A stretch of DNA of 64,000 bases from Candidatus Spyradenecus sp. (lineage in GTDB: Bacteria; Verrucomicrobiota; Verrucomicrobiia; Opitutales; UBA953), in contig JAZSKX010000005.1 in the NCBI GenBank assembly GCA_045535075.1, forward strand, positions 64,001 through 128,000. Direction: 5' to 3'. The notes beneath the pieces are model-generated. The model worked only from the letters and a program-made list of their open reading frames with translations. It was not told where the DNA came from and ran no database searches. Below are positions 248 through 64,000 of this stretch, one piece after another. Within the stretch, counting starts at the first letter, position 1. Each line of letters starts with the position of its first letter. The position numbers were made by a program, and so were the translations under genes.

Positions 248-1159
248 TCAGTTAAGAAGCTTAGCCGCGATTCCGTAGCGCAGATTGCGCGGAGAAAAAA
301 TCAGTTCGCCGACGCCGCAAACGTCGGCGACTTCGAGAACGATCGCCAACGCCACCGGGAAAATATCAGCTCGTGTCGCGGGAACGCCGTCGAAAGCGAC
401 GCGTTCCGCTACGTTTTTTTCCGCCGAAGCCGCCAGCAATTTTTCTAAAGAAGAAATCGGAATTTTTCTTGGGAAAATCGCCGATTCGATTCCGGATTTT
501 CGCGCCAAAATATGATGCGCCAGCGCCAGGACTCCGCCGCAAAAAACAATCGGAGTTTCCCGCGAAATATTTGCACTTAATTCCGAAGCCGGGCATTCAC
601 GCACATGCCGGCGAATTTTTCGGATAATTTCCGGCTGCAAAGCGGCTTTCGGTTCGCGGACAAATTCATTCATCAATCGCACGGCGCCGAGCGGCCAACT
701 GCGCACGTCGTTCCCGCCGCGCCCGATGAACTCCAAGCTTCCGCCGCCCAAATCAAAAATCGCGGGAACGCGCGGCAAATCGCGCACAAGCGAATCCGTC
801 AAAACGCCGGCGGCAATGCCTTCCGCCTCCTCTTCGCCCGAAAGCACGCGCAAAGGCGTTCCCGTCGCCTCTGAAATTGCCTCCGCAAATTCGCGAGCAT
901 TTGCCGCTGTCCGAAAAACGCTCGTCCCGACAATCGCAATCGCCGTCGGCTCGTATTTTTGCGCCTTGTCCAAAAGCCTTTTCACGGCATCGATTCCCTG
1001 TGAAAATTTTTCGGCGGAAATAATTCCCGCATCACGCTTTTCAAGTAAGCGGACATCTTCGTACGCCTCAAAAACACAATCGACGTGCGCCGATCGGGCA
1101 ACGAGCAACTTAAACGAATTGGAGCCTAAATCAATGACTGCGGCACAAGGCGTATCCAT
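248..1159 (-). CDS. ppx: Ppx/GppA family exopolyphosphatase (short form)
   Basis: IDLGSNS, GTSVFRTAAN, LSGEEEA, DLGGGSLE and NLRYG motifs. Confidence 0.9.
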   Translation of the reverse strand: MDTPCAAVIDLGSNSFKLLVARSAHVDCVFEAYEDVRLLEKRDAGIISAEKFSQGIDAVKRLLDKAQKYEPTAIAIVGTSVFRTAANAREFAEAISEATGTPLRVLSGEEEAEGIAAGVLTDSLVRDLPRVPAIFDLGGGSLEFIGRGGNDVRSWPLGAVRLMNEFVREPKAALQPEIIRKIRRHVRECPASELSANISRETPIVFCGGVLALAHHILARKSGIESAIFPRKIPISSLEKLLAASAEKNVAERVAFDGVPATRADIFPVALAIVLEVADVCGVGELIFSPRNLRYGIAAKLLN

Positions 1160-1174
1160 AAAAAAATGACGATT

Positions 1175-1795
1175 TTAATTATTCCCGTCAAAACGCGGCA
1201 TCGTAACTTCCGCACCCCGATTGTCCGCACTATTGATTCCTTCGGACTTAACGACTTTCAGCGCCGTCAACACGAGAATTTTCATATCAAGCCAAAACGA
1301 AACGTGGTCCACATACCAAACATCGAGCTCAAACTTTCGCTTCCATGAAATGGCGTTTCGTCCGTGCGTCTGCGCCCAACCCGTAACGCCGGGACGCACA
1401 TCGTGGCGGCGCGCCTGTTCCCGTGAATAAAGCGGAAGATATTCGGGAAGCAAGGGGCGCGGGCCGACAATCGCCATATCGCCCTTTAAAATATTGAAAA
1501 GCTGCGGAAGTTCATCAAGCGAAGTTTTCCGAACAAAGCGTCCGACTCGCGTCAGCCGGTCGCAATCGGGAAGTAAATTTCCGTCGGCATCGCGCTCGTC
1601 CGTCATTGTTTTGAATTTGACGACACGAAAGATTTTTCCGTTTTTTCCGGGGCGTTCCTGTGTAAAAAAAACGCCGGCGCCCTTATTTGCGAAATGCAGA
1701 AAAACACAGAGCGCCAAAATCACCGGAGACGCGCAAACGCAAACAAACACGGCAAGACAAAAATCAATCATGCGCTTGAAAAATTTCTTGTACAT
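1175..1795 (-). CDS. Undecaprenyl-phosphate sugar phosphotransferase (PglC-like bacterial sugar transferase)
   Basis: KRMIDF, FTQERPG, KFKTM, RKTSLDELPQ, VGPRP, PGVTGWAQ motifs. Start reassigned to ATG 1795 (MYKKFF). Confidence 0.9.
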   Translation of the reverse strand: MYKKFFKRMIDFCLAVFVCVCASPVILALCVFLHFANKGAGVFFTQERPGKNGKIFRVVKFKTMTDERDADGNLLPDCDRLTRVGRFVRKTSLDELPQLFNILKGDMAIVGPRPLLPEYLPLYSREQARRHDVRPGVTGWAQTHGRNAISWKRKFELDVWYVDHVSFWLDMKILVLTALKVVKSEGINSADNRGAEVTMPRFDGNN

Positions 1796-1901
1796 TCGTT
1801 CATTGTTTACCAAAGCTAAACAAGCCGCAAGCGCAAGAATACTCGAAAATTTAATGCTTGCGTGCCGCACGTTCCCGTCGTTCAAATTTTCACCACTTCT
1901 G

Positions 1902-61494: not shown

Positions 61495-61531
61495 AAACAA
61501 AATTTGCTAAGGTAAAAAATTATATAAGGAA

Positions 61532-62698
61532 TTAATTTTTGAAAGGCGTAGGCTCGTATCGAAGCACATCAAGCGATTTGAAGCCTTGATACATCAGCTC
61601 GGCGGCGCGCTGATTGCGCTCGCGTTGAGACGTTTTCGCATCAATTTCGCCTTTCTTATTTTTGACAAGCCCGCCCAATACAACGGCAACAACGCGCTTG
61701 TTCCCGCGTGACGCGGTCGTAACAATCGAAGCTCCGGCGTTCGTCCATCCGGTTTTCAAGCCGTCGCACCCCTCGAAGATTTCCAAAAGCCGATTGTGAT
61801 TTTTCATCGGCATAGGCAATTTGCGTTTTGTATTTTCCGGATAATTACGAACAATCGTTGATGAATAACGGAGCGACTCCGGAAAACGTTTAATCAGGGC
61901 GACGGAAAGCTTCGCAAGGTCTTCGGCAGTCGTCATGTCCGCCCGTTTTCCCGCATTTCGTTCCCTGCTGCTCGGCGGCAAACCGTGCGGCGTAGCAAAG
62001 CGCGTATTCGACAATCCGAGTTCTTCCGCCTTTTTATTCATGTCGGCGACAAAATCTTCGACGTTCCCGCAGAGCGTTTCCGCAAGAACAACGGCAGCAT
62101 CGTTTGCGGATTGGAGCATAAGTCCGTAAATTAAATCTTCGATTCTGCAAGGTTCATCGACATCGAGATTGAGTTGCGTTCCGCCCATCCCGTAAGCGCG
62201 CTTGCTCGCAAGCACCGTATCGTTGAGGGAAATTTTTCCCGCCTCTAACGCCTCAAGAACAAGATAAAGCGTCATAATTTTCGTAACGCTCGCCGGCGGA
62301 CATTGGCGGCGAATATTCGTTCCCGCAAGCATTTTGCCGGTTTCGGCATCGACACAAATCTCACCCGCCGAACGGAAAATAGAAAGAGTCTTTCGCGGAG
62401 CTTTCGGGACGCGCCCGGCTTTGGCAAGGGCAACGGGAGTCCCGAGCTCCGGCGCAGTAGCGGGCGGCGGCACGGGAACATAAGGCTCGACCGGAATTCC
62501 CGAAGTCGGCTCAGACCCTGCGGGAACGCCGTCAACGGTTTCTTCACCCAAAACCGGTATTTCCGGCGGCGGGGTTGCCGTCGCCGAAGAAGAATCAGAT
62601 TTTTCGACTTCCGATTCCGAGAAGAGCACGAAAAACGCCGTCGTCCAAACGACGACCGCGACCACCGCGCCCAAAATCAAAAAGCGTTTGTTATTCAT
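61532..62698 (-). CDS. dacA: D-alanyl-D-alanine carboxypeptidase (peptidase S11)
   Basis: PASVTK (SxxK), SAND (SxN), PHGL, GLKTG; N-terminal TM and Pro-rich linker. Confidence 0.88.
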   Translation of the reverse strand: MNNKRFLILGAVVAVVVWTTAFFVLFSESEVEKSDSSSATATPPPEIPVLGEETVDGVPAGSEPTSGIPVEPYVPVPPPATAPELGTPVALAKAGRVPKAPRKTLSIFRSAGEICVDAETGKMLAGTNIRRQCPPASVTKIMTLYLVLEALEAGKISLNDTVLASKRAYGMGGTQLNLDVDEPCRIEDLIYGLMLQSANDAAVVLAETLCGNVEDFVADMNKKAEELGLSNTRFATPHGLPPSSRERNAGKRADMTTAEDLAKLSVALIKRFPESLRYSSTIVRNYPENTKRKLPMPMKNHNRLLEIFEGCDGLKTGWTNAGASIVTTASRGNKRVVAVVLGGLVKNKKGEIDAKTSQRERNQRAAELMYQGFKSLDVLRYEPTPFKN

Positions 62699-64000
62699 GT
62701 TTCTTTCGTTTGAAAAATTTGTTCAAAAAAATACCGATCAACTCATCGCATTCCGGGAAACGCAAGAGCTTCAGGAGTAGGAAATAAAAACCGACAGCGA
62801 CGGGAACGACGATAAAAAACGCCGCCAAAAGCCCCCACGAAAATCCTGCACAAATACGAACGGCAAAATTCCATGCGCCCCAAGTCGCTCCCGCCATCGC
62901 GCCGGAAGCAACGAGCACTTTACACAGCGCTCCGAGGACGGGTTCTTCGAAAAATACGCGTTCCCGCCGACGCAGAATAACGAGCAACGCAATGCATTGA
63001 AACGCAGCGGCAAGCAAATTGGCGGCGGCAAGTCCACACGCCTTAAAATGCCAACCTAAAATCGGAGAAAGCACCAAGTTTAAAGCGAAGGTTGCCACAC
63101 CGACGCGCATTTGCGTTTGCGTGTCTTTAAGCGAGCTGAACGCCCGACCGACAATTCCGCTTACGGCATAAAAAGGCACCGCCAAAGCAAAAATATAGAG
63201 CACGGGAACGGTCAACGCCGTATCGGCGGCGGAAAAATGCCCGTGCTGAAAAAAGCCGCGGACAAGCGGTTGCGCCAAGACGATAATCCCTAAGGTTGCG
63301 GGAATATTTATCGCCAGAATCAATCGCATTCCGTAGGAAAACGTTTCCCCGAGTTCCCACATCCGCCTTTCGGCGGCATGGCTCGCCAAGAGCGGGAAAA
63401 CGACGGTTGTAATCGTTACGGTAAAAATGCCGACGGGAATTTCGACAATTCGGTTGGCAAAGTAGTAAACAGCCAACGCACTGTCTTCCAAGAAAAACGC
63501 CAACGCACGCGTCGCAAAGAGATTGAGCTGATTCACTCCTGCGCCGATAAGAGCGGGAAGAAACATTGCTTTAAGGTCATACCACGCAGGCGTCGTCGAA
63601 AGATCTATTTTCGGGCGCCATCCCGAGCGCCAAAGCGCCGCAGCGGGAATTCCGAGTTGCAGAGCTCCGCCGAAAAGCGCTCCCGCGCAAAGCCAAACGA
63701 CGCGTTCTTCCGGCGTATCTCCGAAATACCATCCGAGTACTCCGAGAGAAAAAATCATCGAGAGATTCATCCAAACCGCACTGAGCGCCGTAACCGTAAA
63801 TTTTCCGAGCATGTTTAACGCCGCCGAAAAAAGCGCCGCGATACAAATCATCGGCATATACGGCATGCAAAGCGCCGTCAGCCAAGCCGCCAGCCGATGG
63901 CGATCGACATCCGTTCCCGCGTTAAAAAACGTAGCCGTTCTCGAAATCGTTTCCTCCGGCAAAAGTGCAATCGCGACGGCGGCGACAACAAAAATCAGAG
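62691..64000 (-). CDS. murJ: Lipid II flippase MurJ/MviN, 5'-truncated by window edge
   Basis: YFANRIVEIPVGIF, FQHGHFS, GLAAA motifs; frame stays open to the window end. Confidence 0.9.
   Translation of the reverse strand, partial: LIFVVAAVAIALLPEETISRTATFFNAGTDVDRHRLAAWLTALCMPYMPMICIAALFSAALNMLGKFTVTALSAVWMNLSMIFSLGVLGWYFGDTPEERVVWLCAGALFGGALQLGIPAAALWRSGWRPKIDLSTTPAWYDLKAMFLPALIGAGVNQLNLFATRALAFFLEDSALAVYYFANRIVEIPVGIFTVTITTVVFPLLASHAAERRMWELGETFSYGMRLILAINIPATLGIIVLAQPLVRGFFQHGHFSAADTALTVPVLYIFALAVPFYAVSGIVGRAFSSLKDTQTQMRVGVATFALNLVLSPILGWHFKACGLAAANLLAAAFQCIALLVILRRRERVFFEEPVLGALCKVLVASGAMAGATWGAWNFAVRICAGFSWGLLAAFFIVVPVAVGFYFLLLKLLRFPECDELIGIFLNKFFKRKKHE

Follow-up and report, generated by a model that had tools for sequence, protein, structure and literature searches.

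The word R-CGGGAAC-G is best explained as a 'self' word at the level of DNA, peculiar to one genus of uncultured Opitutales (Verrucomicrobiota) from the gut; by analogy, its mode of action is most likely that of the DNA uptake sequences of the Neisseriaceae and Pasteurellaceae. Judging from the genomes, we give roughly an even chance to the view that biased uptake and recombination have spread it as a DNA-uptake-sequence-like signal. A literature search found no published description of the word.

In the window, by which we mean the whole 64,000-nucleotide stretch analysed, CGGGAAC/GTTCCCG occurs 240 times (116 copies on the plus and 124 on the minus strand, first base 379 and last base 63919), or one CGGGAAC per 267 bp. 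One hundred dinucleotide-preserving shuffles yielded a mean of 14.83 copies (sd 3.95, largest 24), and none of the 100 reached 240; the word stands about 16-fold above this control and about 30-fold above the expectation for equal base frequencies, in good agreement with the earlier note on this DNA, which had reported about 235 copies and a 30-fold excess. Extension of the 240 7-mer cores gives 182 copies of CGGGAACG, 161 of RCGGGAACG and 118 of GCGGGAACG. Across the 1.95-Mb genome CGGGAAC is the commonest 7-mer, with 6,528 copies (3,169 plus, 3,359 minus), and there are 5,159 copies of CGGGAACG, about one per 300 bases, and 3,244 of the 9-mer GCGGGAACG, as against 34 for the reversed-word control of the 9-mer. 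The genome-wide logo bears out the G/A-CGGGAAC-G flanks first described in the window (position -1, G 0.62 and A 0.24; position +8, G 0.79) and carries no information outside positions -3 to +9; because no wider conserved flank exists, the word is not a mobile element. Positions 2-8 of GCGGGAACGC are strict, the consensus being 65x over expectation and the single-mismatch variants 0-5x, with one at 10x.

Such a word could in principle be a functionless by-product, arising from biased composition, codon use or dipeptides, from a repeated protein domain or from a small mobile element, a reading that we regard as very improbable. It would accommodate the 60:40 excess of sense copies and the local same-strand runs, which follow the coding strand, as the 12-copy run in a GDSL-lipase-like gene illustrates (Table 1). 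However, both strands and all six frames (three frames in both orientations) are occupied genome-wide, in addition to intergenic DNA, as the earlier note had claimed in describing comparable numbers on both strands and several reading frames; in the window, 122 copies are sense, 97 antisense and 21 intergenic, sense/antisense and frame counts being approximate since the genes were called with a simple purpose-written caller. Coding DNA holds 84% of the copies in the genome, yet the intergenic density (4.18/kb) exceeds the coding density (3.22/kb). In codon-preserving controls the excess persists, at 6-12x relative to synonymous shuffles and 13-60x relative to codon-order shuffles; no shuffle reached the 3,291 sense and 2,178 antisense 7-mers observed, the largest counts being 571 and 389, respectively. 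The enrichment over synonymous shuffles is nearly equal in the two orientations (6.3x sense, 6.0x antisense), so the sense excess is explained by codon compatibility. Replichore polarity is lacking, the intergenic copies dividing into 506 on the leading and 478 on the lagging strand, and motif strand correlates with GC skew (0.44) no more strongly than with gene strand (0.51). The enrichment thus withstands codon-preserving shuffling and comes without strict strand polarity, two of the points on which the earlier note had thought its reading vulnerable. A conserved flank that stops at about 11 nt further argues against a by-product.

The word is confined to one Opitutales genus. High density was found in 15 of its 19 species, which hold 3,060-5,581 9-mers each at GC contents of 52-65%, whereas 62 genomes of four sister genera hold 9-176 each, at control level, even at similar GC. 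The 16 genomes from other families of the order contain 0-196, mostly at control level, two of them being scored at about twice control (G040, 158 vs 60; G028, 59 vs 49). Together, the frame and strand use, the shuffles and the sister genera refute the by-product reading as far as sequence analysis can. The motif dialects that the earlier note had proposed to look for in relatives did not materialize: in k-mer counts over 53-93 kb per species, the four low-density species retain remnants of R-CGGGAAC-G and no other word has taken its place, so that decay alone is seen. An apparent new word in L003 was rejected as a local 148-bp tandem array.

Comparison of species shows that, in the high-density species compared (G000 against G010, G011 and G009), a force acting on DNA, rather than on RNA or protein, maintains exact copies. 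With the sites of G000 as reference, 95/138, 63/121 and 45/78 are intact in high-density species, whereas other 8-mers of these alignments are intact at 39.5%, 19.7% and 12.4%; conservation of the sites between high-density species is thus 2-5 times better than that of other 8-mers. In the four low-density species the sites decay at the neutral rate or faster, 24/127, 20/117, 16/116 and 9/128 being intact vs 24.6%, 20.7%, 21.3% and 10.6% of other 8-mers. This decay is concentrated at wobble positions, and among the motifs that these species keep, 24/25, 20/30, 16/20 and 9/20 are common to G000. By gyrBA identity the four species form two separate lineages, in which maintenance has lapsed. In the gyrA-gyrB pair, an orthologous yardstick, some sites are common to nearly all 17 aligned species and others are lineage-specific.

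Two Mu-like prophages and the defence islands contain few copies of the word: the largest motif-free gaps correspond to these prophages, a restriction-modification system of NgoBV type, the gene for a 1,609-aa helicase and a T5orf172 gene. In the viral collection, the inverted pair occurs in only 38 DNA stretches, none of them above 0.69 copies/kb. The proteome, for its part, has been reshaped, with the tripeptides encoded by the word inflated about 5-fold (AGT 1,190 vs TGA 225; VPA 882 vs APV 190; GNA 422 vs ANG 169), and GCGGGAACG spells 82% of the AGT tripeptides.

Copies also occur as inverted GTTCCCG..CGGGAAC pairs, 264 of them at spacings of 7-40 in the genome, including 171 in intergenic DNA, of which 153 have a T run and/or an A run beside them. 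An inverted pair lies no more than 120 nt past the stop codon in 189 of 1,469 genes. The intergenic pairs would form terminator-like hairpins and are putative intrinsic terminators; in keeping with the earlier description of the word as paired in terminators, five intergenic pairs in the window resemble bidirectional terminators (Table 1). Inverted pairs are not confined to terminators, since the back-to-back pair GTTCCCGCGGGAAC sits within a coding region.

Table 1. Copies, runs and inverted pairs of the word in the window, with the genes beside them
Feature	Position	Strand	Context
Dispersed R-CGGGAAC-G copies	378..63920	both	Within housekeeping genes and between them
Back-to-back inverted pair GTTCCCGCGGGAAC	4598..4611	.	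Within coding region
Inverted pair GCGTTCCCG-loop-CGGGAACGC, then T run	5331..5357	.	Intergenic; terminator-like hairpin 3' of ORF 4346-5284
Run of 12 same-strand copies in 1 kb	29166..30170	+	Inside 1037-aa GDSL-lipase-like gene
Inverted pair between A run and T run (AAAAAAGCGTTCCCGCACGGGAACGCTTTTTT)	30585..30600	.	Intergenic; resembles a bidirectional terminator, with the GDSL-lipase-like gene (27427-30540, +) and gyrA (30629-33085, -) converging on it
gyrA-gyrB pair, orthologous yardstick	30629..35800	-	Carries 9 sites of the word in this genome
Inverted pair with A and T runs	42202..42223	.	Intergenic; terminator-like, 3' of aspS (40385-42178, +)
Inverted pair with A and T runs	48548..48571	.	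Intergenic; terminator-like, 3' of trigger factor gene (47229-48527, +)
Inverted pair, A run upstream	55121..55146	.	Intergenic; between ORF 54564-55115 (+) and ABC ATPase gene 55283-56086 (-)

The genome encodes type IV pilus proteins (PilB x2, PilC, a secretin and 7 prepilin-type genes), a PilT-family retraction ATPase (435 bits vs a cut-off of 319), ComEC, DprA and ComM; the ComEC is short, at 570 aa in the simple gene call, with the Competence domain as its sole match. ComEA was not found with the HHH_3 or TIGR00426 models in this genome, which is 99.45% complete; they matched only one 805-aa open frame, which we take to be Tex-like, and, in each case, a single site below threshold. None of the 19 genomes of the genus yielded a ComP_DUS domain (PF16732) in a search run without a positive control. 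The search for competence genes that the earlier note had advised thus yielded the pilus with PilT and secretin, ComEC, DprA and ComM, and neither ComEA nor a ComP-like receptor; its statement that no competence genes lie in the window agrees with a Pfam scan of the 51 ORFs there. The presence of ComEC, DprA and a pilus is itself weak evidence, because these occur throughout the order and in non-transformable bacteria. Additionally, the low-density species (G001, G002, G013 and G014) all have ComEC, PilT and DprA intact, so no loss of competence genes explains the decay. The three solitary pilins were compared in G001, G013 and G014, with two or three of these species per pilin: G001 and G013 keep all three at 85-91% identity, and G014 keeps them too, although one of its copies is interrupted by a single in-frame TGA.

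Three families linked to methylation or phosphorothioation were scanned (PF01555, PF02384 and DndC), and none of them tracks the word. N6_N4_Mtase (PF01555) is missing from the high-density G000, G004 and G006, and N6_Mtase (PF02384) from the high-density G018, G008, G012 and G003; as each is missing from several high-density species, no methyltransferase of either family tracks the word, and the methylation alternative raised in the earlier note is weakened. DndC is absent in G000, where two C5 methyltransferases were seen, one in a prophage and one in a restriction-modification island. These results bear on a further explanation, that biased mutation, repair or gene conversion inside the cell, with no uptake or binding function, generates the word; for example, a very-short-patch-type mismatch nuclease, possibly methyltransferase-coupled, might correct near-matches towards CGGGAACG. 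We consider such a process quite unlikely. It would act on DNA regardless of frame and strand, would need time on new DNA, in keeping with the prophage depletion, and could be switched off by one gene loss, in keeping with decay in two lineages, and the word does contain two CpGs. Yet the single-mismatch variants stand at background and are not depleted below it, and the PF01555 and PF02384 families do not track the word, nor is DndC present in G000. The effects that very-short-patch repair is known to have on word frequencies stay below 2-fold, as against 16-60-fold here.

Another possibility, which we rate as somewhat unlikely and which the earlier note had also raised for a nucleoid or repair protein, is that an abundant cytoplasmic protein specific to the genus binds the word, either a nucleoid organiser or the reader of an orientation-independent 'self' mark for a repair or defence nuclease (cf. 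Chi, read by RecBCD); selection, and not uptake-driven conversion, would then preserve each site. Recognition that is strand-symmetric and orientation-independent would suit such a protein, as would the keeping of exact sites between high-density species with neutral decay where maintenance lapsed, and the depletion in prophages and defence islands; the retention of competence and pilus genes in low-density species also fits the loss of another reader protein. However, no candidate protein was identified, and selection would be needed at >5,000 sites, strong enough to alter amino acids (AGT and VPA about 5-fold), something that a conversion drive could do easily but selection on single sites only with difficulty, which counts against protein binding. 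Moreover, polarity is a feature of the known Chi and KOPS-type signals that this word lacks, and the heavy use of inverted pairs in terminators mirrors that of the uptake sequences DUS and USS (10.1101/2025.10.24.684340).

The uptake signal inferred in the earlier note is therefore supported in part. The shuffles, the lack of polarity, the pilus, ComEC, DprA and ComM genes, the restriction to one genus, the site maintenance, the prophage depletion and the effect on the proteome speak for it; the failure to find ComEA or a ComP-type receptor, the lack of dialects and the retention of ComEC, PilT and DprA in decaying species count against it. Under this uptake reading, a surface-exposed type IV pilus component would bind word-bearing double-stranded DNA in either orientation, the candidates being a minor pilin of the four-gene operon G000:C1:259100-262397 or one of the three solitary pilins. 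PilT-driven retraction would then draw the DNA through the secretin, ComEC would import one strand, and DprA, RecA and ComM would recombine it. Word-bearing alleles, being taken up more often, would replace word-less alleles in a molecular drive that could lead to one word per 300 bp, hold fixed sites, bend codon choice and amino-acid sequence towards the word and leave recently acquired DNA without it. Inverted pairs, to judge from their sequence, have been co-opted as intrinsic-terminator stems.

Chi/KOPS-type words share with this word the status of over-represented oligomers, and are read on chromosomal DNA by a DNA-processing machine; unlike this word, they are strongly co-oriented with replication, and they are far less dense. 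HIP1 of cyanobacteria (GCGATCGC) counts against the uptake reading, since it shows that transformable bacteria not known for sequence-specific uptake can carry a hyper-abundant word; it is likewise an 8-nt word, with a density of up to roughly one in a few hundred bases, genic and intergenic, clade-specific and without an established reader. It is, however, palindromic and linked to methylation, whereas the present word is asymmetric and untracked by the modification families scanned. DUS of the Neisseriaceae, 10-12 nt long and read by the minor pilin ComP, occurs roughly once per kb, and the present word, at one 9-mer per 300-600 bp, reaches about 2-4 times that density. DUS (PMC2817400, 10.1101/2025.10.24.684340, PMC7371117) resembles our word in being short and non-palindromic, with copies that number in the thousands, lie on both strands and occupy several frames within genes as well as the DNA between them, and with inverted pairs as terminator stems; both are clade-restricted and depleted in horizontally acquired DNA, and both inflate the encoded tripeptides. 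The two sequences are unrelated and belong to Proteobacteria and Verrucomicrobiota, respectively; the coding share is 84% here vs 34.5% for N. meningitidis DUS (PMC2817400, columns taken in the species order of its abstract); Neisseriaceae have ComP and dialects, whereas the genus here yielded no ComP_DUS domain in the uncontrolled search and shows decay alone. USS of the Pasteurellaceae, as described in PMC2817400, likewise has a core of about 9 nt, lies mostly within genes with a frame bias explained by codon compatibility, is associated with enriched tripeptides and is absent from genes without homologues in relatives; the tripeptide inflation is about 2-fold there and about 5-fold here. 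USS differs in its AT-rich flanks, our word having no extended ones, and in that ComEA was not detected here; according to PMC12616744, a minor pilin was recently predicted as the USS receptor. If uptake were confirmed, the word would represent the first uptake-sequence-like system outside the Proteobacteria.

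The 64-kb window carries 240 copies of the 7-mer CGGGAAC/GTTCCCG, 116 on the plus strand and 124 on the minus strand, against an expectation of 14.8 +/- 4.0 in dinucleotide-preserving shuffles of the window (largest value 24; none of 100 shuffles reached 240). In the genome to which the window belongs (G000; 1,949,087 bp in 18 contigs, 51.9% GC, 99.45% complete), no other 7-mer is as frequent as CGGGAAC, whose 6,528 copies amount to one per 299 bp; the 8-mer CGGGAACG occurs 5,159 times and the 9-mer GCGGGAACG 3,244 times, compared with 34 occurrences of the 9-mer read backwards. 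A logo over all copies reads y-y-(G 0.62/A 0.24)-CGGGAAC-(G 0.79)-(C 0.46), and GCGGGAACGC stands 65-fold above its second-order Markov expectation. Because the farther flanks carry no information and single-base variants at positions 2-8 collapse to 0-5-fold (one to 10-fold), the word is a sharply delimited unit of 8-10 nt, with no longer repeat or mobile element behind it. An earlier note, which from sequence inspection had proposed a new DNA-uptake-sequence-like system, was correct in its description of about 235 copies, a spacing of about 270 bp and biased flanks. Intervals between copies in the genome are near-exponential (CV 1.09) save for a tail of long gaps.

By the calls of a simple gene caller trained on G000 itself (1,469 genes, 87% coding), the copies divide into 3,286 in sense orientation, 2,176 in antisense orientation and 1,061 between genes; their density is 4.18/kb in intergenic vs 3.22/kb in coding DNA, and each orientation uses all three reading frames. 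The enrichment survives the comparison with codon-preserving shuffles that the earlier note had named as a check: over synonymous-codon shuffles within each gene, which preserve protein sequence and codon usage, the 7-mer is enriched 6.3-fold in sense and 6.0-fold in antisense orientation and the 9-mer 11- to 12-fold, and over codon-order shuffles enrichment is 13- to 60-fold. Since both orientations are equally enriched, the 60:40 sense excess and the same-strand runs in the window reflect the codons able to spell the word, and are no pointer to an RNA-level function. The G-rich strand carries 506 intergenic copies and the opposite strand 478; the strict replichore polarity that had been raised as a point against the proposal is absent, and there is no polarity of the Chi/KOPS type.

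Close pairs in the order GTTCCCG..CGGGAAC number 323 within 60 nt in the genome, with a peak spacing of 19, compared with 161 in the reverse order. At spacings of 7-40 there are 264 such pairs, of which 171 are intergenic, and 153 of the 171 have a T run downstream and/or an A run upstream, the usual form being AAAAAGCGTTCCCG-loop-CGGGAACGCTTTTT. Inverted-pair hairpins lie within 120 nt past the stop codon of 189 of the 1,469 genes, and five are found within the window. These inverted pairs are putative transcription terminators, consistent with the pairing in terminators previously described for the window. The word also leaves its imprint on proteins: tripeptides that it spells far outnumber their reversed counterparts (AGT 1,190 vs TGA 225, VPA 882 vs APV 190, GNA 422 vs ANG 169, FPQ 136 vs QPF 27), a roughly 5-fold rewriting of their frequency, and exactly GCGGGAACG encodes 82% of all AGT tripeptides in the genome.

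The window GyrA is 100% identical to two public MAG records (L001 and L002, labelled Opitutales bacterium and Verrucomicrobia bacterium) and shares 83-98% identity with records filed under Candidatus Spyradosoma, Candidatus Spyradenecus or Opitutales; within the latter range, four records labelled Enterobacteriaceae, Bacteroidaceae or Sphaerochaetaceae (L007, L008, L009, L024) were taken as mislabels. Among 22-kb gyrA loci with at least 2.5 7-mers/kb, CGGGAACG ranks first among 8-mers in 10 of 10, at 52-65% GC. One gyrA locus, L011, has 0.78 7-mer copies/kb, and loci from farther Opitutales, Puniceicoccales and Poribacteria have at most 0.36, except L038 (Puniceicoccales) with 0.79. Per genome, GCGGGAACG occurs 3,060-5,581 times in 15 high-density species of a single Opitutales genus, G000 included (reversed-word control 34-88), 732-760 times in three low-density species of that genus, G001, G002 and G013 (control 52-73), and 340 times in a fourth, G014 (control 37). 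Across 62 genomes of the four sister genera of the family the count is 9-176; the control equals or exceeds it in 53, and the count otherwise exceeds the control by at most 16, except in G052 (176 vs 143). Sixteen genomes from other families of the order carry 0-196 copies with similar controls, apart from two genomes that stand above theirs (158 vs 60 in G040, 59 vs 49 in G028). It is scarcely credible that the word is an artefact, a by-product of coding, composition or a mobile element, given its spread over frames, strands and intergenic DNA, its excess over codon shuffles and the control-level counts of the sister genera.

Nucleotide identity to G000 over gyrBA is 87-88% for G001, G002 and G013, equal to that of the high-density species G010 and G011, and 78% for G014; G009 and G008, the most distant at about 67-70%, are high-density. 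By these identities the low-density species fall into two separate lineages; drawn from gyrBA distances alone, the simplest history would have the word gained at the root of the genus and then declining independently in two lineages. Genes are thoroughly reordered between species of the genus (window 30001-50000 vs 18 other species): gyrB and gyrA alone stay linked, joined in some species by the gene downstream, and orthology by synteny is limited to that pair; in a relative with 99% identical gyrBA, the neighbour genes lie tens to hundreds of kb off, on the same contig or another.

To compare maintenance of the word, seven relatives were aligned to G000 over 38-62 kb each, with orthologous sites found by BLAST of the relatives' fragments against the whole genome, and intact CGGGAACG was set against all other 8-mers. 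The contrast between high- and low-density species runs in the same direction in seven of seven comparisons, which are drawn from partial genomes of related, non-independent species.

Conservation of G000 CGGGAACG sites and of all other 8-mers in seven relatives of the genus
Relative	Density class	G000 sites intact	Other 8-mers intact
G010	high	95/138 (69%)	39.5%
G011	high	63/121 (52%)	19.7%
G009	high	45/78 (58%)	12.4%
G001	low	24/127 (19%)	24.6%
G013	low	20/117 (17%)	20.7%
G002	low	16/116 (14%)	21.3%
G014	low	9/128 (7%)	10.6%

In the high-density species compared, an active force holds exact copies where they are; in the low-density species this force has ceased. Residual motifs of the latter are mostly held in common with G000 (24 of 25 in G001, 20 of 30 in G013, 16 of 20 in G002, 9 of 20 in G014). 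Of 450 ungapped sites pooled, 67 are intact, and most others are relics one or two mismatches away from the word. Changes are most frequent at position 5 (80 sites with A to G, 88 with A to C), which in the commonest frames is the wobble base of GGA and GTT. In a gyrBA alignment of 17 species, some word sites are common to nearly all and others are lineage-specific. Biased repair or conversion within the cell might also yield such a word, an explanation that we consider improbable. We hold at about even strength that the word is instead an uptake-sequence-like signal spread by biased uptake and recombination. Motif dialects, which the earlier note had suggested seeking in relatives, did not emerge: k-mer spectra over 53-93 kb of each of the four low-density species contain no new hyper-abundant word, only the original one weakened to about 0.5/kb, with GCGGGAA still ranking first among 7-mers in three of these species. 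A candidate replacement, TCCGGAGA in the low-density relative sequence L003, was rejected, being part of a local tandem array of 148-bp units.

The long gaps have a characteristic content. A helicase gene, perhaps acquired for defence, fills the longest word-free gap of G000 (5,373 bp). Motif-poor stretches are also occupied by a restriction-modification pair, a T5orf172 gene and two Mu-like prophages, whose products include Mu Gam, a MuB-like AAA ATPase, Mu portal, Mu Gp27 and terminase. Rfam searches returned no RNA gene on the motif-poor islands and a single tRNA, with nothing else, on the window. In a collection of viral contigs the inverted pair was found in 38 stretches, where the 8-mer reaches at most 0.69 copies/kb vs 2.6/kb in the host; with none of the 38 loci at host-like density, carriage of the word by phages was rejected. 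Because the gaps are prophages, a restriction-modification pair, the helicase and T5orf172 genes, and viral contigs are poor in it, the word marks long-resident DNA. Additionally, six IMG/VR contigs (L211, L214, L208, L181, L197 and L204; 57-62% GC) combine the inverted pair with CGGGAACG at 0.5-0.7 copies/kb, above background yet far below host density, and could be phages or prophage fragments of the genus. In the Mu-like prophages, an ADP-ribosyltransferase exoenzyme domain is found in one ORF and YadA-head repeats in a large one.

Coordinates of features in G000, its relatives and the window (C, contig of the genome named; L, individual sequence record)
Feature	Location	Strand	Remarks
Mu-like prophage 1	G000:C16 ~183-220 kb (L112:4600-20000 + L113:1-18600)		nearly word-free
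Mu-like prophage 2	G000:C8 ~21-34 kb (L114:3100-15800)		nearly word-free
C5 cytosine methyltransferase, then NgoBV-family restriction endonuclease	L116:1670-4257 (G000:C12 ~44.7-47.3 kb)		inside 4.3-kb word-free gap
1,609-aa helicase gene	L115:1513-6342 (G000:C5 ~229.5-234.3 kb)		DEAD/Helicase_C and UvrD-type domains
Four prepilin-type genes	G000:C1:259100-262397		one operon
Prepilin-type gene	G000:C16:98944-99864
Prepilin-type gene	G000:C2:44974-45813
Prepilin-type gene	G000:C5:99026-99451
Pseudopilin operon of G013	L176:3400-6550 (G013:C19 ~71.4-74.5 kb)		GspG/H/I/J/K-like by ORF sizes and N-terminal motifs
Tandem array, low-density relative	L003:14300-18300		~148-bp units, at least 13, partly in both orientations
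935-aa ORF	window 1494-4301	+	no Pfam family
Tyrosine-recombinase (Phage_integrase family) ORF	window 39071-40261	-	amid housekeeping genes; low coding score, custom caller

With respect to uptake machinery, no competence gene was found among 51 ORFs scanned in the window, as the earlier note had stated; the window holds the housekeeping genes gyrA, gyrB, aspS, proS, pheS, pheT, tig, ilvC, hemB, hemH and obg, together with a ClpB/ClpC-type (Clp_N/AAA_2) ATPase gene. The wider search that the note proposed was answered in part. Outside the window, G000 encodes two PilB/GspE-type ATPases, one PilC/GspF homologue, a PilT-family retraction ATPase (435 bits, cut-off 319), seven prepilin-type proteins and a secretin, which matches the Amuc_1098 type IV pilus family below the model cut-off (332 bits vs 750). 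DprA and ComM are present too, as is a ComEC of 570 aa by our own gene call, with a match to the Competence domain alone. ComEA was not found in this 99.45% complete genome, nor was the ComP_DUS domain in any of 19 genomes, in a search run without a positive control. ComEC is present in 25 of 25 relatives, all four low-density species included. All 19 genomes of the genus have DprA and PilT, the latter lying across two contigs in G006. G001 and G013 keep the three solitary pilins intact, and one pilin of G014 has one in-frame TGA. Because ComEC, PilT and DprA are present in all low-density species, the decay of the word is not explained by obvious competence-gene loss, which was rejected as its cause for want of any consistent loss.

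Prepilin-type genes number 11 in all four low-density species; of 12 high-density species scored, G000 included, 10 have seven, G004 has 10 and G012 has 11. A type II pseudopilin operon would explain this difference; the cluster in G013 resembles GspG-K of type II secretion, and the extra genes are not obvious candidates for the word's reader. The ORFs beside the G013 operon were taken as GspL/M-like. Compared with G000, the solitary pilins of G010 are 47-55% identical and those of G001 and G013 85-91%, at gyrBA identities of about 87-88% for all three, which suggests fast or diversifying pilin evolution, or pilin gene exchange.

The word might otherwise be an array of sites for a cytoplasmic DNA-binding or self-marking protein, which we judge unlikely, if less so than biased repair. 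Methyltransferases of families PF01555 and PF02384 were rejected as the word's partner, each being missing from several high-density species in a genus survey that covered these two families. Phosphorothioation was likewise rejected, as DndC is absent from G000, though the word contains GAAC/GTTC.

Membership among uptake sequences is defined by motif-dependent uptake and a receptor, and the genomic properties listed for them, dialects apart, are present here, several stronger than in the classical cases. These properties include terminator use, frame bias, tripeptide inflation and a lack in genes without homologues (10.1101/2025.10.24.684340; PMC2817400). In the introduction of a 2025 preprint, two proteobacterial families, Neisseriaceae and Pasteurellaceae, are the sole ones named as having sequence-specific self-DNA recognition for uptake (10.1101/2025.10.24.684340). 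Our literature search, in which coverage of subscription journals was thin, turned up no account of a word of this kind for Verrucomicrobia or for the Candidatus genera mentioned above. It is a real possibility, which we hold at slightly below even, that this uncultured gut Verrucomicrobiota genus harbors a third, independently evolved uptake-sequence system, the first outside Proteobacteria and at about 1/300 bp the densest known, with a receptor unrelated to ComP.

The word offers a simple marker of native vs acquired DNA in genomes of the genus, and its decay in four species makes the question directly testable through comparative genomics; if the uptake-system reading is true, comparison with these same species offers a way to find the gene for the receptor. 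Were uptake to be confirmed, the word would also provide a handle for the genetic tractability of these uncultured organisms. Finally, a genomic look-alike of uptake sequences in gut Verrucomicrobiota would make the self-DNA strategy commoner than thought, and would mean that uncultured gut commensals swap alleles by transformation and that a DNA-level drive is able to reshape codon use and protein sequence genome-wide.
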